Below are positions 968 through 63,639 of a stretch of DNA of 64,000 nucleotides, piece by piece. The position numbers and the translations under genes were made by a program. Source of the DNA: an uncultured Verrucomicrobiota bacterium (GTDB lineage: Bacteria > Verrucomicrobiota > Kiritimatiellia > PWTM01); assembly GCA_964402695.1 (NCBI GenBank), contig CAYODK010000003.1:22697-86696 (forward strand), given 5' to 3'. The notes under the pieces were generated by a model that was given only the letters and a program-made list of their open reading frames with translations, was not told the origin of the DNA and searched no databases. The number at the start of each line of letters is the position of its first letter. Position 1 is the first letter of the stretch.

Positions 968-1175
968 GCGCCGTCCCGCCCCGGGCTTGTCGCTGATCCA
1001 AAACGCTCACGACCGCCGCCCCACCGGGCTTGTCACTGATCCGCAACGCTCAAGACCGCCTCCCCACCGGGCTTGTCCCGGATCCGCAACGCGCAGGACC
1101 GCCGTCCCACCGGGCTTGTCACGGATCCGCAACGCGCAGGACCGCCGTCCCACCGGGCTTGTCCCGGTGGGGGGC
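968..1175. repeat. Tandem array of five ~44-bp units carrying the REP-like core CCACCGGGCTTGTC; the terminal unit is the full palindrome CCCACCGGGCTTGTCCCGGTGGGG
   Basis: Read directly: units at ~974, 1017, 1061, 1105, 1149 with few substitutions and no unique spacers. Same palindrome family as 22.6 and 23.6 kb. Confidence 0.8.
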
Positions 1176-4407: not shown

Positions 4408-4518
4408 GGTTTCAGGTGTCAGGAAGGAGGAGTTTCAAGTTCCAAGTTTCACGTTTCAAGTTCAGAAGTCAGCCTCTTGGATGTTGGCTGTTGGGCGTTG
4501 GATGTTGGATGTTGAATC
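4408..4518. repeat. Composite heptanucleotide tandem-repeat element: GGTGTCAGG word, (GTTNCAA)x6 then (TTGGNTG)x6
   Basis: Read directly: gtttcaa gttccaa gtttcac gtttcaa gttcaga agtcagc ctc ttggatg ttggctg ttgggcg ttggatg ttggatg ttgaatc. Abuts the stop of the DUF1080 gene. Confidence 0.7.
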
Positions 4519-5319: not shown

Positions 5320-5362
5320 GAATCAACATCCAACAACCAGCGCCCAACAGCCAACATCCAAT
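5320..5362. repeat. (TTGGNTG)n heptamer array in reverse orientation, ~85 bp upstream of the DUF1080 start
   Basis: caacatccaacaaccagcgcccaacagccaacatccaa read directly. Confidence 0.6.
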
Positions 5363-15164: not shown

Positions 15165-15242
15165 CGGATTCAACATCCAACACCCAACATCCAACATCGA
15201 AGCCGGTGCAACCTGAAACTTGGAACTTGGAACTTGAAACTC
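15165..15242. repeat. Composite heptamer element in a divergent promoter region: (CAACANC)x4 then GAAACTT/GGAACTT x4
   Basis: caacatc caacacc caacatc caacatc gaagccggtgcaacct gaaactt ggaactt ggaactt gaaactc. The reverse complement is the (GTTNCAA)n(TTGGNTG)n element oriented toward the LysM gene start ~45 bp away. Contains GGAAC/TGAAAC words. Confidence 0.7.
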
Positions 15243-15283: not shown

Positions 15284-16651
15284 ATGCGACGGTGGGCGGT
15301 TCTTGCGGCGGGGCTGGCGGCGTGGGTCGGCATCTCGGGCGCGGCGGAGCCGCGGCCGAACGTGGTCGTGATCATGACCGACGACCAGGGCACGATCGAC
15401 GCGCATTGCTGTGGCGCGGCGGATCTCGAAACGCCGGCGATCGACCGGCTCGCCCGGGAGGGGGTCCGGTTCACGCAGTTCTACTCCGCCGCCCCCGTCT
15501 GCTCGCCGTCGCGCGCCGGTCTGCTGACCGGCCGCTACCCTCCCCGCGCCGGCGTGCCGAACAACGCGCCGTCGGAATCCGGCAGGGCCGGCATGCCGCC
15601 ATCCGAGGTCACGATGGCCGAGATGTTCAAGGCCGCCGGCTACGCGACCGCTCACATCGGCAAGTGGCACCTCGGCTACTCGCCGGAGACGATGCCGAAC
15701 GCGCAGGGCTTCGACCTCTCGTTCGGCCACATGGGCGGCTGCATCGACAACTACTCGCACTTCTTCTACTGGCAGGGTCCGAACCGCCATGACCTGCACC
15801 GCGACGGCGTCGAGATCCACCGTCCCGGCCGCTTCTTCCCGGACCTGATGGTCGGGGAGGCCTCGGCGTTCCTCCGCGCGAACCGTGCCCGCCCCTTCTT
15901 CGTCTACTTCGCGCTCAACCTGCCGCACTACCCGTACCAGGGCGACGAGAAGTGGCTGAAGCGCTACGCGTCGCTGCCGCACCCGAGGAACCTCTACGCG
16001 GCCTTCGTCTCGACGCTCGACGAGCGCGTCGGGCGGCTGCTCGACGAACTCGATGCCCTCGGCCTCGCGTCGAACACGGTCGTCGTCTACCAGTCCGACA
16101 ACGGCCACTCGACCGAGGAGCGCGCGCACTTCGGCGGCGGATCGGCCGGCGAGTACCGCGGCGCCAAGTTCAGCCTGTTCGAGGGCGGCATCCGCGTCCC
16201 GGCGATCGTCCGCTGGCCCGGCCGCATCCCCGCCGGCGCGACACGCGACCAGGTCGGCCACGGCTGCGACTGGCTGCCGACGCTCGCGGAGTTGTGCGGC
16301 GTGAAACCGCCGGAGGCCGCGCTCGACGGGCGCAGCCTCGTCCCGGTGATCCGCGACGCCTCGGCGCCGACGCCGCACGACGTGCTGCACTGGCAGGTCG
16401 GCGGGCCGTGGGCCGTGCGCGAGGGCGACTGGAAGCTGCTCGGCCAGCCGCAGGACACGGGCGTCCGCCCGGCGGAGAAGCTGCCGAAGCTGTTCCTCGT
16501 CAACCTGCGCGACGACCCGCGCGAGCGGACCAACCTCGCCGACCGCGAGCCCGCGCGCGTGCAGCGCATGAAGGCGCTCCACGAGGCGTGGGTGGAAGAC
16601 ATCGGACGTCAACAACCAACATCCAACAGCCAACAACCAACAACCAAGTAG
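15284..16651 (+). CDS. sulfatase
   Basis: Start at Met27 of track ORF 15206..16651. Signal MRRWAVLAAGLAAWVGISGAAEP. PNVVVIMTDDQG. CSPSRAGLLTGRY. The last ~13 codons (QQPTSNSQQPTTK) are a translation of the heptamer repeat. Confidence 0.9.
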   Translation: MRRWAVLAAGLAAWVGISGAAEPRPNVVVIMTDDQGTIDAHCCGAADLETPAIDRLAREGVRFTQFYSAAPVCSPSRAGLLTGRYPPRAGVPNNAPSESGRAGMPPSEVTMAEMFKAAGYATAHIGKWHLGYSPETMPNAQGFDLSFGHMGGCIDNYSHFFYWQGPNRHDLHRDGVEIHRPGRFFPDLMVGEASAFLRANRARPFFVYFALNLPHYPYQGDEKWLKRYASLPHPRNLYAAFVSTLDERVGRLLDELDALGLASNTVVVYQSDNGHSTEERAHFGGGSAGEYRGAKFSLFEGGIRVPAIVRWPGRIPAGATRDQVGHGCDWLPTLAELCGVKPPEAALDGRSLVPVIRDASAPTPHDVLHWQVGGPWAVREGDWKLLGQPQDTGVRPAEKLPKLFLVNLRDDPRERTNLADREPARVQRMKALHEAWVEDIGRQQPTSNSQQPTTK

Positions 16652-16723
16652 CGAACGGGAGGACGTGCCCGCTTCGTTGGGTGTTGGGTGTTGGGTGTTG
16701 GTTGTTGGGCGTTGGCTGTTGAG
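16609..16723. repeat. Inverted pair of heptamer arrays, (CAACANC)x6 ... (TTGGNTG)x7 with ~28-nt spacer; potential long hairpin
   Basis: caacaac caacatc caacagc caacaac caacaac caagtag ... ttgggtg ttgggtg ttgggtg ttggttg ttgggcg ttggctg ttgagc read directly. Confidence 0.7.
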
Positions 16724-19305: not shown

Positions 19306-20175
19306 ATGAACCACTCTACCGAGCGCACGCTGGCCGCCCGCGCAACGGCGCTGGGCAACGGGGCGGATGGGGGCGCCTTCGCGGAACTTGCGGAATGCCT
19401 CCGCAGTGAATCCCCGCTCGTGCGCAGGCTGGCCGCCTCGGCGCTCGGCAAACTGGCGGGGCTGGTTCCGGCGGACGCCGCGGTGCAGGCGCTTCTTCCC
19501 CTGCTTTCGGACCCGCACCCGCAGGTTCGGCAGTACGCCGCGAAGGCCCTCGGAGCCTTCGGCGCCCACGCGGCGCCCGCGCTCCCGGACCTGCGCGACC
19601 TGTATCGGAACCCGGCCGAACTGGACTATGTGAAACGAAGCGTGCTTGCCGCAGGGAAGACCATCCGCGCCGCCATGGATCTGGCGGCGGCCAAGACCGT
19701 CCACCGGTGCCGTAGATGCAGTGTCGAGGTCTCGGCCGACGAGTTCGCGCGATCCCGCATGGCCTTCCAACGGGTCTTCTGCGATCACTGCTTCGACGAG
19801 GTCTTCCTCGACCGCCGGAACTTCGAGACCAAGGTCGAGTTGCAGAAGACGATCCGCGCCCGCGACGGCACCCTCGTGCAATCCGATGGCGAACGCCGCG
19901 TCGCGGAATGGCTTTCGGCCCACGGCATCGCCTATCGCTACGACGAGCGCTTCCGCATTCTTGACGGGTACGCCATCCGTCCCGACTTCTACCTGCCCGA
20001 ACACGATGTCTACATCGAATACTGGGGTCTGGACACCGCCGACTACAAGATCGGCATGCTCAAGAAACAGCAACTCTACCAGCAACAGGGCAAGCGCCTG
20101 ATTTCGCTGCACTGGCAGCACAAGGCGACCCTGGAGGCGGATCTGGAGGCCAAGATGAAAGAGATTCGGCGATGA
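19306..20175 (+). CDS. HEAT-repeat / zinc-ribbon protein with C-terminal PD-(D/E)xK- or NERD-like domain (hypothetical)
   Basis: HEAT-like SPLVRRLAASALGKL, DPHPQVRQYAAKALGAFG. CRRCS...CDHC zinc-ribbon. RVAEWLSAHGIAYRYDERFRILDGYAIRPDFYLPEHDVYIEYWG. Stop overlaps the next start. Confidence 0.5.
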   Translation: MNHSTERTLAARATALGNGADGGAFAELAECLRSESPLVRRLAASALGKLAGLVPADAAVQALLPLLSDPHPQVRQYAAKALGAFGAHAAPALPDLRDLYRNPAELDYVKRSVLAAGKTIRAAMDLAAAKTVHRCRRCSVEVSADEFARSRMAFQRVFCDHCFDEVFLDRRNFETKVELQKTIRARDGTLVQSDGERRVAEWLSAHGIAYRYDERFRILDGYAIRPDFYLPEHDVYIEYWGLDTADYKIGMLKKQQLYQQQGKRLISLHWQHKATLEADLEAKMKEIRR

Positions 20176-22604
20176 AACCCTGCATTTCGGTTCCGATCCT
20201 GTTCGCGCTTCTGGCCGGGTGCGCCACGCCCGTCGCGCCGCCGGCGCCGAAGCGGACGGAGGCGCCGCCGTGCGTGGTGGTCGCGAAGGCGGAGTGGCAG
20301 CCGATGAAGGGCTCGCCGACATCCGAGGTCGTGCGCGCCGACGGGCGCGAGGTCGTGCGGCTGGGTTGCACGTTCGCCGGGACGACGATCGAGCGCGTGT
20401 CGTGGGATGTGCCGGTGAAACTCGACCTGACTGCGGCGCGGGGGCTGCGGTTCGAGGTCCGGTGCGACGACCTCGCGCCGGTCTCGCACTTCTCGCTCTA
20501 CCTGCGCAGCGGCAAGGGCTGGTACAGCACCACGTTCCATCCCGAGTCGACGGGACGGTGGGAGGCCGTCGCGATCGAGCGCGACGGCGCGCGCAAGGAG
20601 GGCGAGCCCGCCGGCTGGGGCGCCATCGACATGCTTCGCTTCTCCGCATGGCGCGCGAAGGACGCCGACACGTCGTTCTGCCTCGGCGACATCCGGCCGG
20701 ACGGCGTGCCGGGCGGCGACACGCTCGTCGCGGTCCTGCGCGCCGACTCCGTCGCGAAGACCGACGAGGGCGAGGCGAAGTCCGTCGCGCAGTTCACCGA
20801 CGGCATGGTCGCGGCCTTTCGCGAGGCCGGGGCCGGGTGCACGGTGGTGAGTGATCTCGACATTGCCGCGGAGCGGCTCGCGCCGTTCCACCTCGTGGTG
20901 CTGCCCTACAACCCGAAGCTCCCGGACGGCGCCGAGGATGAGCTTGCCCGGTTCGCCGCCCGCGGCGGGAAGCTGATGGCGTTCTACACCGTCCCGGCGA
21001 AGCTGCGTCCGCTGCTCGGCATCGACGGCGGCGCACACGTGAAGGCGGCGCGCGACGGCCAGTTCGCGGCGATCCGCACGGTCCGTGGCGCACTGGCCGG
21101 CGCCCCGAAGACGACCGGCCAGAAGTCCTGGAACATCCACTCGTTCACGCCCGTCGCCGGCGCGGGCCGCGTCGTGGCCGAATGGCTCGACGACCGCGGC
21201 CAGCCGGCCGGGCATGCCGCGATCCTCGGCTCGACGAACGGCCTTGTGATGTCGCACGTGCTGCTGCCGGACGATCCCGCGAACAAGCGGCGCCTGCTGC
21301 TGGCGATGGCCGGAAGCCTCGCGCCGAAGGTCTGGCGGCAGATCGCGGAGACGGCGATCGCCGGCGTGGGCGACGAACTGGGCTACGACACGTTCGAGAA
21401 GGCGGTCGAGGGCATCCGGTCCTTCGGCGGCGCCGACTGGCGGGGGCGGTGGACGCTCCACGCGGCGCGGTCGCAGTATGCCTCCGCGTTGCGCTCGCTT
21501 TCGCGCGGGCGGTTCGCCGACGCCACCGACCGCGCCGCGCAGGCGGACCGGCGGATCGTCGACGCCTTCTGCGCGGCGCAGCCGCGGACGCCGCTCAAGT
21601 TCCGGGCGTTCTGGTGTCATGACGCGTACGGCGTGGCGGGGATCCCGTGGGATGAGGCCGTCCGCCGCCTGAAGGCGAACGGCTTCACCGCGATCGTCCC
21701 CAACATGCTCTGGGGCGGCTCGGCGTTCTTTCCGAGCGACGTGCTCCCGGTGGCCGCGAAGGTCGCCGAGCGTGGCGATGCGGTGGCCGAGTGCCTGGCC
21801 GCCTGCCGGAAGCACGGGATCGAGATGCACGTGTGGAAGGTGAACTGGAACCTCGGGCACACGGTGCCGAAAGAGTTCACGGAGCGGATGCGCACCGAAG
21901 GGCGCCTCCAGAGGAGCTCAAAGGGTGTCGAGGAGCCGTGGCTGTGTCCGTCGCACCCGGCGAACCGGCAGCTGGAGATCGCCTCGATGGTCGAGGTCGC
22001 GCGGAAGTACCCGGTGGACGGCATCCACTTCGATTACATCCGCTATCCCGGCCACGACCACTGCTTCTGCGACGGCTGCCGCGAGCGCTTCGGAAAGGTT
22101 GCGGGCGCCCCGGTCGCGAGCTGGCCCGCCGACGTGCAGCGCGGCGGGCCTCTGCATGCGAAGTGGCTCGATTGGCGGCGATCCAACATCGACGCGGTCG
22201 TGGAGGCGGTCAGCCGCGAGGCGCGCACGGTGCGGCCGGGGATCAGGATCTCCGCGGCCGTGTTCCGCGAGTGGGCGACGGACCGCGACGGCGTCGGGCA
22301 GGACTGGAAGCTCTGGTGCGACCGGGGCTGGCTCGATTTCGTCTGCCCGATGGACTACACGCCCAGCAACCGGCGCTTCGAGGGCATGGTGTCGCGGCAG
22401 GTCGAATGGGCCGGGAAGGTGCCGTGCTATCCGGGGATCGGCGTCAGCGCGTCGTCGTCCCGCTTCGGCGCCCCGCGCGCGATCGAGCAGATCCGCATCG
22501 CGGAGCGGTACGACACCGGCGGGTTCATCCTCTTCAACTACGGGGCGAAGGAGAGCTCGGTCCTGCTCCCCCGCCTCGGCCGCGGAATCACGCGGCCGGA
22601 GTAG
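20172..22604 (+). CDS. lipoprotein with glycoside-hydrolase-like (GHL10/DUF4015-type, tentative) C-terminal TIM-barrel domain
   Basis: Lipobox LLAGC. 810 aa. HVWKVNWNLGH, DGIHFDYIRYPG, CPMDYT motifs. Confidence 0.55.
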   Translation: MKPCISVPILFALLAGCATPVAPPAPKRTEAPPCVVVAKAEWQPMKGSPTSEVVRADGREVVRLGCTFAGTTIERVSWDVPVKLDLTAARGLRFEVRCDDLAPVSHFSLYLRSGKGWYSTTFHPESTGRWEAVAIERDGARKEGEPAGWGAIDMLRFSAWRAKDADTSFCLGDIRPDGVPGGDTLVAVLRADSVAKTDEGEAKSVAQFTDGMVAAFREAGAGCTVVSDLDIAAERLAPFHLVVLPYNPKLPDGAEDELARFAARGGKLMAFYTVPAKLRPLLGIDGGAHVKAARDGQFAAIRTVRGALAGAPKTTGQKSWNIHSFTPVAGAGRVVAEWLDDRGQPAGHAAILGSTNGLVMSHVLLPDDPANKRRLLLAMAGSLAPKVWRQIAETAIAGVGDELGYDTFEKAVEGIRSFGGADWRGRWTLHAARSQYASALRSLSRGRFADATDRAAQADRRIVDAFCAAQPRTPLKFRAFWCHDAYGVAGIPWDEAVRRLKANGFTAIVPNMLWGGSAFFPSDVLPVAAKVAERGDAVAECLAACRKHGIEMHVWKVNWNLGHTVPKEFTERMRTEGRLQRSSKGVEEPWLCPSHPANRQLEIASMVEVARKYPVDGIHFDYIRYPGHDHCFCDGCRERFGKVAGAPVASWPADVQRGGPLHAKWLDWRRSNIDAVVEAVSREARTVRPGIRISAAVFREWATDRDGVGQDWKLWCDRGWLDFVCPMDYTPSNRRFEGMVSRQVEWAGKVPCYPGIGVSASSSRFGAPRAIEQIRIAERYDTGGFILFNYGAKESSVLLPRLGRGITRPE

Positions 22605-22612
22605 TCCGCCGC

Positions 22613-22800
22613 CGATTTCCGGCCCCACCGGGACAAGCCCGGTGGGAGCCAAGAGGGACGGCCGATCGCTCCCACCGGGCTTGTCGAGGTGCGAGTCCGA
22701 AACTCGTACTCTTGCTCCGCTCCCACCGGGCTTGCCCGGTGGGGGGCCGGATGATGAGGCGAAGCGGCGTTTCCACCGGGCTTGTCCCGGTGGGGCGGAA
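22613..22800. repeat. REP cluster: four copies of the palindrome CCCACCGGG-N6-CCCGGTGGG (left flank of the RAYT gene)
   Basis: ccccaccgggacaagcccggtggg, cccaccgggcttgtcgagg (partial), cccaccgggcttgcccggtgggggg, ttccaccgggcttgtcccggtggggcgg read directly. Confidence 0.8.
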
Positions 22801-22818
22801 AACGAAGGGGGGCGATGC

Positions 22819-23598
22819 GTGCGGTACACGGGCGTGAACGTGCACATCCCGCACAAGCTCCTTCTCGACTGGACCGGCTGGCTCTCCGACGGCGCCTCCT
22901 TCCCTCCCGCCACGGCCGCGGCCATCGAATCCGCCGCGCCCGCCTGGGCCTCCGACGGCCTCACCCTCGACACCTTCCGCATCGCGGGCGACCTCGTGCA
23001 GATCCTCTTCGCAACGACGCCCGACGTGAGTCCGGTCCTTCTCGCCGCCCGCGCGAAGGGCCGTCTCCAGCACGCGCTTCGCGCCGCGGGTGCGCCGGTC
23101 GCGTTCAGCCGCAAGGTGTCCGTCCGCTCCGTCGGGGAGAACACGAGGGCGGATGTCGAGGGCTACCTCGCGCGCCAGGTGGAGCGGGGCGAGTTCGCCG
23201 ATCCGCGTTTCCGCGAACGGATGGCGCGATACACGGCGGTGCGCGACGTGACCGACCTGGCCGCGCCGATGGCGGGCGGACACGGGCGGTACTGGTACAA
23301 CCTGCACGTGGTCTTCGTCACCGCGGACCGGTTCCGCTTCGGGGCGGACGATGTCCTTGCGGGGCTCCGCGACGCGGCTGTCGCGGCGGCGGACCAGAAC
23401 GGGCACGGCCTCAAGTCGGTCGCCGTGATGCCGGACCACGTTCACATGGCGCTGCGGGGGGCCATCGCACGATCGCCGCGGGAGATCGGCGTGGGGTTTC
23501 AGAACGCGCTTGCGGATGTCGCCGGGTGCCGCGCGTGGCAGGACGAGTTCTACGCCGGCACGTTCAGCGAGTACGACGTCTCCGCCATCCGCCGCTGA
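22819..23598 (+). CDS. REP-associated tyrosine transposase (RAYT; IS200/IS605 TnpA-like HUH Y1 enzyme)
   Basis: C-terminal ~125 aa carry the Y1 signature: RYWYNLHVVFVT (beta1), SVAVMPDHVHMAL (HUH), REIGVGFQNALADVAG helix, QDEFYAGTF (Tyr). Start uncertain: GTG 22819 just after the REP cluster, or ATG 23221 / 23269. The upstream in-frame ~130 aa look like a degenerate second copy (DLVQILF in place of HVHMAL). Overlapping minus-strand track ORFs are rejected. Confidence 0.7.
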   Translation: MRYTGVNVHIPHKLLLDWTGWLSDGASFPPATAAAIESAAPAWASDGLTLDTFRIAGDLVQILFATTPDVSPVLLAARAKGRLQHALRAAGAPVAFSRKVSVRSVGENTRADVEGYLARQVERGEFADPRFRERMARYTAVRDVTDLAAPMAGGHGRYWYNLHVVFVTADRFRFGADDVLAGLRDAAVAAADQNGHGLKSVAVMPDHVHMALRGAIARSPREIGVGFQNALADVAGCRAWQDEFYAGTFSEYDVSAIRR

Positions 23599-23750
23599 TT
23601 TCCGGCCCCACCGGGACAAGCCCGGTGGGAGCCAGAGATCTCGTACACTCGGCCCGCTCCCACCGGGACGAGCGCGGTGGGAGCCTGAAGAGACGGCCCG
23701 CTCCCACCGGGCTTGTCCCGGTGGGGCGGAAACGGGTGGAGGCGGGGGCC
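23596..23750. repeat. REP cluster, three copies (right flank of RAYT)
   Basis: ccccaccgggacaagcccggtggg, cccaccgggacgagcgcggtggg, cccaccgggcttgtcccggtgggg. Confidence 0.8.
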
Positions 23751-23774
23751 GGGTCGGCGTAGGATCGTTCCGCC

Positions 23775-24926
23775 ATGAACCGCCGCCGATTTCTTGCCGC
23801 TGTCGGCACCACCGCGTTCGCCGCGCGCCTGCCCGCGGGCGCGGGTGCGAAGACGGACCGCTTCTTCACGCTCGCGCAGCGCGGCGGGCGGTGGTGGCTC
23901 GCCGCGCCGGACGGCTCGCCGTTCTTCTCGATCGCGCTCAATCACATCGACCCCTCGCCTCTGCGGATCGAATCCAACGGCGACCTGTGGGCGCGGAAGT
24001 ACGGCAACTCCATGGAGCGCTGGCTGAAGGAGTCCGTCGCGCCCGACCTGCGCGCATGGGGCTTCAACAGCGTCGGCTGGACGCAGGAGGTCGTCACGCG
24101 GGGCCTAACGAACCACCGGCATTCCCGCGCGTTCACGTTCGAGGAGTACCAGTGGCTCGGCCTTCCCTACTGTCACCAGCTTCCGTTCGCCGACTTCCAC
24201 CAGTGGGAGGCCGAGACGCGCCATCCCGACCTTGCCAGCCCCGAGTTCGCCGACTGGTGCGACTACGTCGCGCGCGAGCACTGCGCGCGCATGGCGGACG
24301 ACCCGAAGCTGATCGGCTACTTCTACCTCGACTGCCCGACGTGGATCCACACGCGGCCGGAGAACGAGTGGAAGGGTCCGGTGTTCGACCCGGCGCGGCT
24401 CGCGACCGACGAGGGGCGGCGCGCTCTCTTCGACCTCGCCACGCGCTGGTACCGGATCACGCACGACGCGATCCGCCGCTACGACAAGCGCCACCTGATC
24501 CTCGGCGACCGCTACGAGGCGGCGCGCTCGATCGCGGACGAGGTGATCGAAGCCGCGAAGCCCTTCGTCGACGCCCTCAGCTTCCAGCATTTCGCGAAGC
24601 CCGACGCCGTCGCCGCGAACCTCGACGCATGGCACCGGAAGACCGGCAAGCCCGTGCTCCTCGCGGATCACGCGATCTCCGTCCGCCTGCCCGACGGCGG
24701 CCAGCGCCACGACGGCGCGGGCTACGCGGAGATGCTGCGGCGGTTGCGCGACGTGCCCGGCTGCGTCGGCTACCACCTGTGCGGCGCCTACCTCCGCAAC
24801 GAGACCCGCAAGCGCGCGCTGCGCGACGCCGCCGAGCACCCCGACGAGGAGGCCCTGCGCGCCATCACCGCCGCGAACCGTGAGACCGCGGACTGGATCC
24901 GCGCGGCGGCGGACACGAAACCCTGA
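23775..24926 (+). CDS. Tat-signal secreted protein, putative glycoside hydrolase, family unassigned
   Basis: MNRRRFLAAVGTTAFAARLPAGAGA twin-arginine signal. 383 aa. Confidence 0.5.
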   Translation: MNRRRFLAAVGTTAFAARLPAGAGAKTDRFFTLAQRGGRWWLAAPDGSPFFSIALNHIDPSPLRIESNGDLWARKYGNSMERWLKESVAPDLRAWGFNSVGWTQEVVTRGLTNHRHSRAFTFEEYQWLGLPYCHQLPFADFHQWEAETRHPDLASPEFADWCDYVAREHCARMADDPKLIGYFYLDCPTWIHTRPENEWKGPVFDPARLATDEGRRALFDLATRWYRITHDAIRRYDKRHLILGDRYEAARSIADEVIEAAKPFVDALSFQHFAKPDAVAANLDAWHRKTGKPVLLADHAISVRLPDGGQRHDGAGYAEMLRRLRDVPGCVGYHLCGAYLRNETRKRALRDAAEHPDEEALRAITAANRETADWIRAAADTKP

Positions 24927-24941
24927 TCGGAAGGATGGACC

Positions 24942-25017
24942 GCTGTAGCCGCGACCGGTCGTCGCGGCAGTGGCGTGCTGTGGTGCAAGGCAACCGCGAC
25001 CAGCGGTCGCGGCTACA
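24942..25017. terminator. Bidirectional hairpin between convergent genes (15-bp stem ctgtagccgcgaccg / cggtcgcggctacag)
   Basis: Inverted repeat read directly in the 105-bp gap between a + gene end (24926) and a - gene end (25032). No U-tract. Confidence 0.4.
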
Positions 25018-25031
25018 GACGACGGTTCGGG

Positions 25032-28817: not shown

Positions 28818-28868
28818 GTTTCACGTGGTTGGATGTTGGTTGTTGGGTATTGGCTGTTGGATGTTGAT
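28818..28868. repeat. (GTTTCAC)(TTGGNTG)x5 heptamer element ~40 bp upstream of the GH26 start
   Basis: gtttcac gtgg ttggatg ttggttg ttgggta ttggctg ttggatg ttgatc. Confidence 0.7.
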
Positions 28869-62791: not shown

Positions 62792-63639
62792 TGCCGCCGG
62801 CGATCATCCTGTGCGGCGGCCGCGCCACGAGGCTGGCCGCTCTCCACGGCGACCGCCCGAAGGCGCTCGTGCCGGTCGCGGGCCGCCCCTTCCTCGAGTG
62901 GCAGATCGCGTGGCTCGCGCGCGGCGGCGTGCGACGTGTCCATCTCGCCGCCGGCCACCTGGCGGACCAGCTCGCGGCGTGGGCGGAGGAGGTGTCAGGT
63001 GTCGGGTGTCCGGTGTCAGGAGGACGGGCCGGATGGCTGCCACCGATGATTCGATATCTGTCCTCCGGCGTCCTCGAGGGCGGGGGGTTGACATCCGGTG
63101 CCCGGTGTTCGGCCTCCGCCCCTGACACCCGACACCTGACACCTGAAACCTCCGTGTCTCTTTCCGTCGAGCCCCGGCCGCTGGGCACGGGCGGCGGATT
63201 GCGGTACGCGGCGGACTTTGTCGACGGCGACGCGATGCTCGTGGTGAACGGCGACACGCTGCTGCCCGGCCTGGATTTCCAAGGGTTGGAAGCCGCGGCC
63301 GAGCGGACTTCCAAGGGTTGGACGTCGATCGCGGTGACGCGGGTCGACGACGCGGCCCGGTTCGGAACCGTGACGGTCGAGGACGGCCGCGTGGTCGATT
63401 TCCTCGAAAAGGGGCGCTCCGCGTCGGGCTGGATCAACGGCGGCGTCTACCGGATGAGCCGCGCGGCCGTCGACTCGATCCCGCGCGAAACGGCCGTTTC
63501 CATCGAGACCGACCTCTTCCCGGACTGGGCGCGCGACGGCCGCATCGCCGCCGTCCCCGCCGATCCGCCCCTGCTCGACATGGGCACGCCCGACGGTCTC
63601 GCGGAGATGGTCCGCTGGCTGGACGCGCACCGCCCGTGA
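62788..63639 (+). CDS. sugar-1-phosphate nucleotidyltransferase (HddC/ManC-like) carrying an in-frame ~160-bp palindromic insertion
   Basis: AIILCGGRATRL (G-G-x-x-T-R), PLGTGGGL, VVNGDTL, GVY motifs in HddC order. Insertion lies between AAWAEE and VSLSVEPRPLGTGGG. Confidence 0.8.
   Translation: MMPPAIILCGGRATRLAALHGDRPKALVPVAGRPFLEWQIAWLARGGVRRVHLAAGHLADQLAAWAEEVSGVGCPVSGGRAGWLPPMIRYLSSGVLEGGGLTSGARCSASAPDTRHLTPETSVSLSVEPRPLGTGGGLRYAADFVDGDAMLVVNGDTLLPGLDFQGLEAAAERTSKGWTSIAVTRVDDAARFGTVTVEDGRVVDFLEKGRSASGWINGGVYRMSRAAVDSIPRETAVSIETDLFPDWARDGRIAAVPADPPLLDMGTPDGLAEMVRWLDAHRP
62989..63148. mobile_element. MITE-like element with terminal inverted repeats built from NGGTGTC heptamers (ggtgtcaggtgtcgggtgtccggtgtcagg ... 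cctgacacccgacacctgacacctg)
   Basis: Read directly inside the nucleotidyltransferase ORF. No stop codon introduced. Confidence 0.55.

Follow-up and report, generated by a model that had tools for sequence, protein, structure and literature searches.

The systems closest to the locus described here are the REPtrons of Escherichia coli (group 2, equal to subclass 2.2) and of Pseudomonas and Stenotrophomonas (group 3, subclass 2.5), and the insertion sequences of the IS200/IS605 family. In a REPtron, a non-mobile, single-copy gene for a Y1 enzyme, the REP-associated tyrosine transposase (RAYT, or TnpA_REP), is flanked by its cognate repetitive extragenic palindromes (REPs). These REPs form inverted pairs and tandem clusters and are also scattered over other parts of the genome. 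The hairpin evolves together with the enzyme, each molecule of which effectively has one active site. It has remained unresolved how such a monomeric, single-site RAYT moves DNA, while its IS200/IS605 relatives need a two-site, helix-swapping dimer (PMC3479197, PMC8266576). We analyzed a stretch of 64,000 nucleotides (the window, to which all coordinates refer unless another contig is named) from contig CAYODK010000003.1 of an uncultured Verrucomicrobiota bacterium (Kiritimatiellia). It contains, on the plus strand at 22819..23598, a gene for a two-domain Y1 (HUH) protein, which is bracketed by two non-coding clusters of the hairpin CCCACCGGG-CTTGT-CCCGGTGGG. That the locus is a member of a REP-associated Y1 family can be stated with high confidence, and we consider it likely that it represents, as a whole, a REPtron-like locus with a fused two-domain Y1 nuclease and a composite active site.

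The features of REPtrons listed above appear to be shared by this locus, with one gene copy in 64 kb, a syntenic position in a relative and one predicted active site, and its REPs have a bulged stem like the group-2 REPs of E. coli (PMC8266576). The differences concern the catalytic motif, which is Y---Q here and Y---NP on helix alphaD in the RAYTs of class 2 (PMC6006769), the size of the enzyme (two domains in 259 aa against one domain in 150-200 aa) and the conserved parts of the hairpin (a CTTGY loop and a 3' tail instead of the usual GTAG foot). The phyla are also different and comprise Lentisphaerota, Kiritimatiellia, Planctomycetota and Desulfobacterota-type metagenome-assembled genomes. 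The single active site would have arisen here by fusion and complementary decay, whereas in REPtrons dimerization was lost and the tyrosine acts in cis. In the classification of TnpAY1 proteins, three classes with twelve subclasses are distinguished, which consist of single-core proteins with accessory tails or insertions (PMC6006769). Nearest to the present family are two of these groups, subclass 1.2 and class 3, which are likewise low-copy relatives of IS200 transposases that are not insertion sequences (Quentin et al., 2018, PMC6006769). Class 3 is found in Planctomycetes and flanked by atypical secondary structures (PMC6006769), and the signature of subclass 1.2, Y---Q--HH, is also present in planctomycete members of the two-domain family. 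However, proteins of both groups (median 148 and 178 aa) have a single domain, in whose core HUH and Tyr lie together, and class 3 has NHVH, Y----Q and a CnGA foot, unlike the two-domain family. By their descriptions none of the 12 subclasses has the two-domain architecture (PMC6006769), and no description of a two-domain, tandem or pseudo-dimer Y1 enzyme or RAYT was found in the 2018 TnpAY1 classification, the PDB, Pfam/NCBIfam or the searchable literature.

The reading frame that terminates at 23598 has been open since 21925. Its real start is the GTG at 22819, because the periodicity of GC at third codon positions (GC3; ∼0.9, as in the neighboring genes) sets in at ∼22819-22820 and is missing in 22600-22820, because an ATG, with GGAGG upstream, occupies precisely this place in the 89%-identical orthologue P0002, and because all close homologues of the protein align from residue 1. 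The 259-aa product has an identical counterpart in the databases, a protein known from a single NCBI contig, and a search of the window returned exactly one copy of the gene. The original prediction had identified the open reading frame ending at 23598 by its YWYNLHVVFVT and PDHVHMAL motifs, both of which are present, and had seen a degenerate Y1 domain lacking the HUH in the upstream in-frame region. This second Y1-like domain is real and translated, as is evident from the GC3 periodicity, the ATG of the orthologue, the full-length homologues and the confident fold. It is not a peculiarity of one gene but the defining feature of a whole family; the two-domain protein is conserved over its full length in several hundred homologues. 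Many entries of the family are 300-390 aa long and carry 40-130 extra N-terminal residues (P0013, P0016, P0022, P0029, P0042 and others). These extensions are start-site errors that run through upstream REPs, and the read-through of a REP translates as ..P(T/N/A)GL(V/A)P(V/L)G.., for example ..PTGLVPVG...

The N-terminal Y1-like domain (aa 1-124, 22819-23190) has L59-V60-Q61 where the HUH motif is expected and retains Y116 (23164-23166) and Q120 (23176-23178). A linker (aa 125-155) connects it to the C-terminal Y1 domain (aa 156-259, 23284-23595), which contains the HUH motif H207-V208-H209 (23437-23445), preceded by D206, and ends just short of the canonical Tyr position. Pfam Y1_Tnp matched residues 160-220 (profile positions 5-65, including PDHVHMAL) with 44.2 bits (cutoff 23, E 2.6e-11), and residues 45-120 matched profile positions 38-121 weakly. 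When a profile built from 42 family members was compared to the PDB, the C domain aligned to Sulfolobus IS200 transposases and to ISDra2 TnpA, with the catalytic Tyr of the solved enzymes falling on an Ile or past the C-terminus. The whole N domain aligned to residues 9-138 of IS608 TnpA (E 0.0035), and its VrslGENTravveeYlrkQ was placed on ILTVSENTRAQIQKYIESQ of ISDra2; the name of PDB entry 2xo6, 'Y132F mutant', suggests that the aligned Tyr of ISDra2 is the catalytic one. The AlphaFold 2 model (pLDDT 92, pTM 0.89) showed two domains of the same topology, beta-alpha-beta-beta-alpha-beta-alpha. The top 29 Foldseek matches of the N domain alone were all IS200/IS605 TnpA proteins, and the fold is closer to these than to E. 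coli TnpA_REP.

The division of the motifs between the two domains is conserved throughout the family. In 187 members that span both domains and were aligned to the family hidden Markov model (HMM), Y116 and Q120, four residues past it, were present in 187/187, and the first and second His of the C-domain HUH, H207 and H209, in 186/187 each. At the N-domain counterparts of these His residues an H-x-H was found in none of the 187: the six commonest residues at position 59 are K, M, L, R, Q and T, His not being among them, and position 61 is Q in 163 members and His in 5. The canonical Tyr position of the C domain is occupied by I or L or lies at the end of the chain. Planctomycete relatives at 35-40% identity have the same motif split. 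FYAGTF, which had been proposed as the C-terminal Tyr region, contains Y245, a conserved aromatic residue of a beta-strand, and the equivalent of the catalytic Tyr is Y116 in the N domain. Y245 and Y252 were both considered as catalytic Tyr and rejected, as the alignment to 2f4f puts the catalytic position beyond the end of the protein and homologues have Ile there. Y252, a conserved aromatic residue of the C domain (182/187), is furthermore replaced by F, W or I in 4 members, and Y116 in none.

In IS608 TnpA the active sites are hybrid, with the HUH motif contributed by one monomer and Y127 on helix alphaD by the other (PMC3597680), and the third metal ligand is Q131, which lies four residues past the Tyr (PMC6006769). 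This hybrid site of HUH and trans-Tyr is the template for the site proposed here: we predict, as the likely arrangement, a composite active site of Y116 and Q120 from the N domain and H207 and H209 from the C domain. Read from the sequence, the protein would most simply be a covalently fused TnpA pseudo-dimer in which one hybrid site is complete and the other has been lost on both sides, and the N-terminal domain is probably essential for catalysis. Both domains retain the Pro that follows the HUH strand (P68/P72 and P220). This Pro is described as a determinant of the dimer interface in IS200/IS605 enzymes, including IS608, that is lost in the monomeric TnpA_REP (PMC3479197); its retention in both domains fits a dimer-like packing. 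The motifs DH[VI]H and Y---Q are likewise shared with the IS200/IS605 TnpA proteins (IS608, ISDra2; subclass 1.1). Those are, however, homodimers of a ∼150-aa single core with two sites, in contrast to one chain with two cores and one predicted site, so that a coordinated excision of two ends with a helix swap could not work here in the same way. As an analogy only, the monomeric LAGLIDADG homing endonucleases are also fusions of an obligate homodimer whose halves diverged asymmetrically; their fold and chemistry are unrelated, and the asymmetry in the present family is a complementary loss of catalytic residues.

The curated models of both the IS200 and the RAYT families failed to accept the enzyme. 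NCBIfam NF047646 (REP_Tyr_transpos) scored the full protein at 15.3 bits and the C half at 18.1 bits with a cutoff of 80, and NF033573 (transpos_IS200) gave 40.2 bits at a cutoff of 55 and covered only profile positions 6-64. Weak matches to REP_Tyr_transpos were obtained for 12 of the 42 members (best E 4.4e-6), and the IS200 model scored above the RAYT model in all 42. The search with Y1 and RAYT models that had been proposed as a check thus supported a Y1 enzyme through Pfam Y1_Tnp but not a RAYT. The assignment to the RAYT/TnpA_REP family did not hold, given the low score, the fold nearer to IS200/IS605 TnpA, and the motif Y116-x3-Q120 in the HUH-less N domain, which is not followed by NP. 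Among 1.84 billion representatives the family comprises 199 clusters (50% identity) at E <= 1e-30 and 509 at E <= 1e-10, and most full-length members have 255-275 aa and cover the whole profile. No dedicated model for the two-domain family was found in Pfam, NCBIfam, PHROGs or PADLOC, and the defence models of PADLOC gave no match.

The hairpins on both sides of the gene are far more frequent than expected by chance. The pattern CCACCGGG-N3-7-CCCGGTGG occurs 6 times in the window and in none of 100 shuffles, and the 15-mer of arm and loop occurs 13 times against 0.43 expected. The clusters had been predicted on both flanks, which stood, with a spacer of 6 nt, which did not: a palindrome with this spacer could be matched only at 3 mismatches, and the true loop has 5 nt (CTTGT/ACAAG), or 4 nt in one copy. 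Both flanks (22605-22818 and 23599-23774) are non-coding. Periodicity of GC by codon position is absent in 22600-22820, 23600-23770 and 901-1200 and strong in the adjoining genes. Intact REPs of the window are ∼32 nt long, with -15 to -17 kcal/mol as single-stranded DNA (ssDNA) and z-scores of -3.3 to -6.5 (ViennaRNA, DNA parameters), and a bulged structure is predicted for them.

The left flank begins with a 47-nt repeat (22605..22651, plus strand) that belongs to direct-repeat family D2 and is 98% identical to the right proximal repeat at 23588-23634. It holds an inverted REP (iREP; 22624-22646, CCCACCGGG-ACAAG-CCCGGTGGG), a REP when the minus strand is read, with a perfect 9-bp stem and a 5-nt loop (ssDNA fold -15.2 kcal/mol, z -4.6). 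It is followed on the plus strand by a half REP (22671..22685), in which the 15-mer of left arm and loop is present with 0 mismatches, without a complementary right arm and without a stable ssDNA fold (z +0.9), and by the variant with the 4-nt loop (22722..22743, CCCACCGGG-CTTG-CCCGGTGGG, -14.2 kcal/mol). The last REP of this flank (22767..22798, plus strand) adjoins the gene start. Its upper stem and loop (22772-22794, 8 bp plus one T.G pair) end 25 nt upstream of the start codon, and its 3' tail GGCGGAAAA extends into the ribosome-binding region of the gene (GAAGGGGGG). On the right, the proximal 47-nt repeat (23588..23634, plus strand) covers the last 11 nt of the open reading frame including the stop codon and holds an inverted REP at 23607-23629, a perfect hairpin (ssDNA fold -17.4 kcal/mol, z -6.5). 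A degenerate, near-symmetrical REP that is assigned to neither strand follows at 23656..23684; its hairpin (23659-23681, GCTCCCACCGGG-ACGAG-CGCGGTGGGAGC, -14.4 kcal/mol) has one mismatched pair. The flank closes with an intact bipartite REP (23698..23729, plus strand; hairpin 23703-23725, followed by the 3' tail AAAC). This REP has a lower stem CCGC/GCGG, a bulged T at 23702, an upper stem of 23703-23711 with 23717-23725 and the loop CTTGT at 23712-23716, and its minimum-energy ssDNA fold is exactly this bipartite structure (-17.4 kcal/mol, z -4.1). The four copies counted earlier on the left are thus three complete hairpins and a half-site, and the three on the right are two perfect hairpins and one with a mismatched pair. 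The shared sequence at the start of each flank, which was given as 45 bp and identical, is the 47-nt direct repeat with one mismatch between its two copies.

The third of the three REP clusters in the window (977..1172, plus strand) lies 21 kb from the gene, between two minus-strand genes. Where the original prediction had a five-unit array of 44 bp at 968-1175, an array exists at ∼977-1172, but Tandem Repeats Finder placed it at 981-1167 with a period of 43, 4.3 copies and 90% matches. It had also been claimed that the REP core makes up every unit. The units at 977, 1020, 1063 and 1106 instead consist of left arm, loop and a locus-specific spacer, with no full palindrome, and only the last unit (1149-1171, tail GGGCGAAAAC, -16.3 kcal/mol) is a complete REP. 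A degenerate iREP arm on the minus strand at 924-938 is possible near this cluster.

The hairpin is conserved together with the protein, and the REPtron architecture that had been proposed from the window recurs in distant homologues. Contexts were taken from homologues at 89, 59, 56, 56, 51, 50 and 53% identity and from three further ones (40, 35 and 37%) that were found beside hairpin matches. In an unbiased search for hairpins (stems >=7 bp, loops 3-7 nt) hairpins flanked the gene in the window, in the orthologue and at every homologue locus that was searched. Cognate hairpins were present at the flanks of the window gene, of the orthologue and of eight more distant homologues, and in at least 9 unrelated genomic contexts the hairpin type follows the protein family. 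The loci of the homologues with 59, 56, 50, 40, 37 and 35% identity carry an unchanged loop and stems with compensatory changes. Stem variants in the hairpin search are CCCAACGGG/CCCGTTGGG, CCAGCGGG/CCCGCTGG, CCTGCCGG/CCGGCAGG, CCGGCGAC/GTCGCCGG, CCCACCGAG/CTCGGTGGG and CCACGGGG/CCCCGTGG. Nearly all loops have 5 nt and read CTTGY/RCAAG, with a few CTCGC/GCGAG variants.

Alignment of 30 hairpins from 11 loci revealed a lower stem of 3-4 bp, a single bulged base on the 5' side, an upper stem of 8-9 bp and a pentaloop. Pairing was found in 91% of cells, compared to 36-53% when the partners were slid by 1-3 columns, and 10 of 12 pairs change on both sides. The covariation score was 0.52 against 0.14 in shuffles and was reached by 0/500 shuffles; in the lower stem three pairs covary (CG/GC/AU, GC/CG/UA and CG/UA). 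Almost all changes in the stems are double Watson-Crick changes with hardly any G-U intermediates, and therefore a DNA palindrome fits better than an RNA element. No Rfam family reached its threshold, and the sub-threshold matches, only to eukaryotic miRNA hairpin models, were taken to reflect a likeness common to hairpins in general. In neither orientation does a T-run come after the hairpin. Of the single-stranded portions, the CTTGY loop and the 3' tail are conserved. There is no GTAG foot at the hairpin; in this lineage gnTC stands in front of it and belongs to the lower stem and the bulge, and in some planctomycete copies a CTAC lies ∼15 nt 3' of the hairpin. Nothing relevant to the hairpin sequence itself was found in the searchable literature.

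The gene appears to be fixed in the chromosome, and the hairpins are dispersed. Over 20082-23781 the window is colinear, at 87% nucleotide identity, with a Lentisphaerota population from Lake Tanganyika that carries the orthologue (MBM4154535.1). The colinear stretch takes in the upstream GHL10 glycosidase-like gene, the Y1 gene and the right REP cluster up to its end, and the orthologue holds the same chromosomal position after the GHL10 gene. A fixed single-copy position is the behavior described for RAYT genes and not for insertion sequences (PMC8266576). Homologues lie in unrelated neighborhoods, and no tnpB was found in the 9 homologue contexts examined. The form specific to this lineage, gnTC-CCACCGGGCTTGTCCCGGTGG-GG-N2-5-AAA, occurs at ∼11 further loci in metagenome contigs from the same lake whose GC content matches (0.69-0.74), and the exact 21-mer CCACCGGGCTTGTCCCGGTGG in at least 117 blocks of 8 kb from genomes of GTDB species, against a chance estimate of ∼0.3 matches at uniform composition and of at most ∼11 if every genome had 70% GC. 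These blocks belong to Planctomycetota, Lentisphaerota, Verrucomicrobiota, Kiritimatiellia, Acidobacteriota and many Alphaproteobacteria, Devosia above all, and the flanks are clade-specific. Most copies of the hairpin are far from any gene of the family, because a protein homologue was found in only 2 of the 117 genome blocks listed (L024, L076) and in 2 of 119 metagenome stretches, one of which is the orthologue locus. In Devosia and alphaproteobacterial blocks (L001, L003, L011, L018, L027, L044 and others) the 21-mer is dispersed with flanks of its own, cgtca-HP-tccatg..., where HP is the hairpin, and it is often followed by a second hairpin with the same loop, GCCGGGACAAGCCCGGC.

Several features of the repeats point to DNA transactions. 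The left and right proximal REPs share genome-specific extensions within each of two related genomes (window 22596-22665 and 23579-23648; the Lake Tanganyika relative, L118, 2792-2861 and 3761-3830). In the window these are TCCGCCGCYG on the 5' side and AGCCA(A)GAG on the 3' side, in the relative AGCCCGGAAC on the 3' side, and the left-flank copy in the window contains 11 nt that correspond to the 3' coding end of the gene. Because the proximal REPs are alike within a genome and different between genomes, and because of the 11 coding nucleotides in the left copy, the pattern indicates that one flank would have been converted by the other since the species split. Where a perfect hairpin occurs in this lineage, it typically closes a short tandem array as its 3'-most unit; the period is 41-59 nt and the spacer differs from locus to locus. 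The units upstream of it retain 5' flank, left arm and loop, but their right arm is broken or missing and they have no A-tail (window 977-1172 and 22671-22794; L179 8129-8312; L170 5520-5950; L164, L131, L140, L199 and L008). Such polarity could possibly result from a directional duplication reaction or from preferential upkeep of the terminal copy. In other clades complete hairpins form regular arrays (period 66-73 nt) or the hairpin occurs in inverted pairs at a distance of ∼60 nt (L076 7060-7351; L142; L228; L148, L154, L163), and planctomycete array units end in GCA(A/C)CTAC. These arrangements resemble mini-insertion sequences (PATE-like) or REPIN-like units and may reveal a cleavage or target site. 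Precisely where the right REP cluster has its outer edge, colinearity with the Lake Tanganyika relative breaks off, and the cluster thus marks the boundary of an indel or rearrangement. About 2.1 kb of the window (23782-∼25906) have no counterpart at L118 3984-3992; this stretch includes an open reading frame for 383 aa (23775-24926) whose N-terminus, MNRRRFLAAVG..., resembles a twin-arginine signal.

We propose that a chromosomally fixed, single-copy gene encodes a Y1 HUH single-strand DNA nuclease/ligase that would recognize the REP hairpins flanking it. Its two IS200/IS605-type TnpA domains, joined in one chain, would have undergone complementary decay, in which the N domain lost the HUH metal site and kept helix alphaD, on which Tyr116 would be the nucleophile and Gln120 a metal ligand, while the C domain kept His207 and His209 and lost the Tyr and Gln of its own alphaD. 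The domains would pack like the obligate IS608 TnpA dimer, so that the N-domain helix completes the C-domain HUH site to one 'trans' site; the second site of the pseudo-dimer would be dead on both counts. The putative substrate is the folded single-stranded REP, with its lower stem of 3-4 bp, 1-nt 5' bulge, upper stem of 8-9 bp, CTTGY and, in this lineage, the 3' tail GG-N2-5-AAA. By cutting DNA at REPs or close to them and resealing it, presumably while it is transiently single-stranded, the enzyme would duplicate and disperse REPs and could produce inverted pairs, tandem arrays and homogenized neighboring copies.

A wider reading would join three elements: one-site enzymes that arose by a route independent of RAYTs (a fused dimer with complementary loss, in several hundred 50%-identity clusters), the co-evolution with them of a bulged hairpin whose CTTGY pentaloop is shared by different phyla, and arrays formed by directional duplication. 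We regard the case for this combination as evenly balanced. Part of it is one stem variant with 21 identical nucleotides in Planctomycetota, Lentisphaerota, Verrucomicrobiota, Kiritimatiellia and possibly Alphaproteobacteria. Another part is that arrays with only the 3'-most hairpin intact would be the footprint of a directional, enzyme-driven duplication, unlike the peel-and-paste transposition of IS608.

Several points weigh against the proposed mechanism. The composite site is derived from motif logic and from the known IS608 dimer, and the near-invariant Y252 (182/187) could in principle serve as a cis nucleophile. The N and C halves have no significant similarity (BLASTP E 0.2; hhalign E 0.55 in global and 0.07 in local mode), so that a duplication, rather than a fusion of two diverged genes, is not proven; the local hhalign alignment places DLVQIL of the N half opposite DHVHMA of the C half. 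Upper stem and loop were criteria by which the aligned hairpins had been selected, which leaves the lower stem as the unbiased test of covariation. The 64-kb window has only three REP clusters. Finally, the 21-mer is abundant in Devosia and other Alphaproteobacteria, in which the protein was not found within the 8-kb blocks, and another enzyme may also use this hairpin there.

The locus might instead be an ordinary RAYT (TnpA_REP, class 2 TnpAY1) with an irrelevant or untranslated upstream extension. The REPtron-like architecture, the JGI label 'REP element-mobilizing transposase RayT' on some homologues and the weak REP_Tyr_transpos matches in 12/42 members agree with this, but the enzyme reaches 15.3 of the 80 bits that the model demands and all 42 members match the IS200 model better. 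Moreover, its motifs are DHVH and Y---Q and not the Y---NP of class 2, its Tyr/Gln helix resides in a separate, translated and invariant N-terminal domain, and the hairpin has no GTAG foot beside it, which together make an ordinary RAYT very unlikely. The same class-1-like motifs would be expected of an autonomous insertion sequence of the IS200/IS605 type, in which the flanking hairpins are the ends and the whole 1.1-kb unit transposes. The hairpins on both sides, the 47-nt direct repeat at both flanks and the label 'transposase' from Pfam and PHROG are in line with such an element. Yet the gene occupies the same position, after the GHL10 gene, in a species that is ∼13% diverged at the nucleotide level, occurs once in 64 kb, and has no tnpB-like partner in any context examined. 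Instead of one subterminal hairpin per end (one left-end and one right-end hairpin bound IS200/IS605 elements) there are several per flank and in both orientations. Hairpin clusters without the gene are present in the window and at nearly all other loci (homologue in 2/117 listed blocks and 2/119 stretches), and the family members are 35-60% identical across phyla and not near-identical copies. A transposing unit of this kind seems to us quite unlikely.

One of the two domains is clearly without a metal site, which raises the question of whether the protein is an inactive hairpin-binding factor derived from a transposase, such as a regulator or nucleoid protein, with REPs that spread or persist by host processes. 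REP numbers in the window are low, and the activity of classical RAYTs is itself described as weak and auto-inhibited (PMC3479197). Against this, Y116, Q120, H207 and H209 are kept in 186-187 of 187 members at a divergence down to ∼35% identity, which a protein that lacks catalysis would hardly account for, and the losses are exactly complementary and leave one complete catalytic set; we regard an inactive factor as unlikely. The lowest probability is given to the view that the hairpins are transcription terminators or structured RNAs and that their association with the protein is coincidental. They are GC-rich, stable and intergenic, and weakly match miRNA models of Rfam as generic hairpins do, but no T-run follows them in either orientation, both orientations stand side by side, and no Rfam family reached its threshold. 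The double Watson-Crick changes with hardly any G-U intermediates are those of a DNA palindrome, and a coincidence would have to be repeated in the at least 9 unrelated contexts where the hairpin type follows the protein family.

Other repeats and neighbors were observed as well. Between two convergent genes lies an inverted pair of hairpins tagged with GTAG (24941-25020), GTAG-GCCGCGAC-cggtc-GTCGCGGC ... CCGCGACC-agc-GGTCGCGG-CTAC, which has the look of a classical GTAG REP doublet or of a bidirectional terminator. The idea of a second REP family with a GTAG tag was rejected, this pair being the only copy in the window. Arrays of 7-nt repeats, apparently less GC-rich than the ∼70% GC genome and often facing each other in inverted orientation, are located at 16610-16647 and 16676-16721, 62990-63020 and 63121-63151, 4431-4514, 5324-5361, 15171-15241 and 28828-28866. 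In one case (CCAACAN)5 faces (NGTTGGN)6 across a 28-nt spacer, in another (AGGTGTC)4 faces (CCTGACA)4 across a 100-nt spacer. Such arrays could fold into long imperfect hairpins and look like a second, unrelated repeat family. At two homologue loci (L122 3442-4761, L124 1072-2382) a gene for a PIN_4/PhoH-type ATPase adjoins the Y1 homologue, convergent in one and divergent in the other; in the window such a gene is not adjacent to the Y1 gene, and the neighborhood may be a coincidence or a loose association.

If the proposed mechanism is true, the family provides a second, independently derived single-site enzyme and with it a natural experiment in which the geometry of the dimer is frozen in one chain. 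One trans-type site would then be enough for whatever REP-associated enzymes do, and the conserved hairpin offers a defined substrate for in vitro cleavage and strand-transfer assays. The protein, an HUH enzyme that is compact, asymmetric by its nature and predicted to target a conserved hairpin, could serve HUH-tag or ssDNA-targeting uses. The family also accounts for a class of mis-annotated 'transposases' whose starts were called through REPs, and with it REPtron biology reaches into the PVC superphylum and sulfate-reducer-type lineages.

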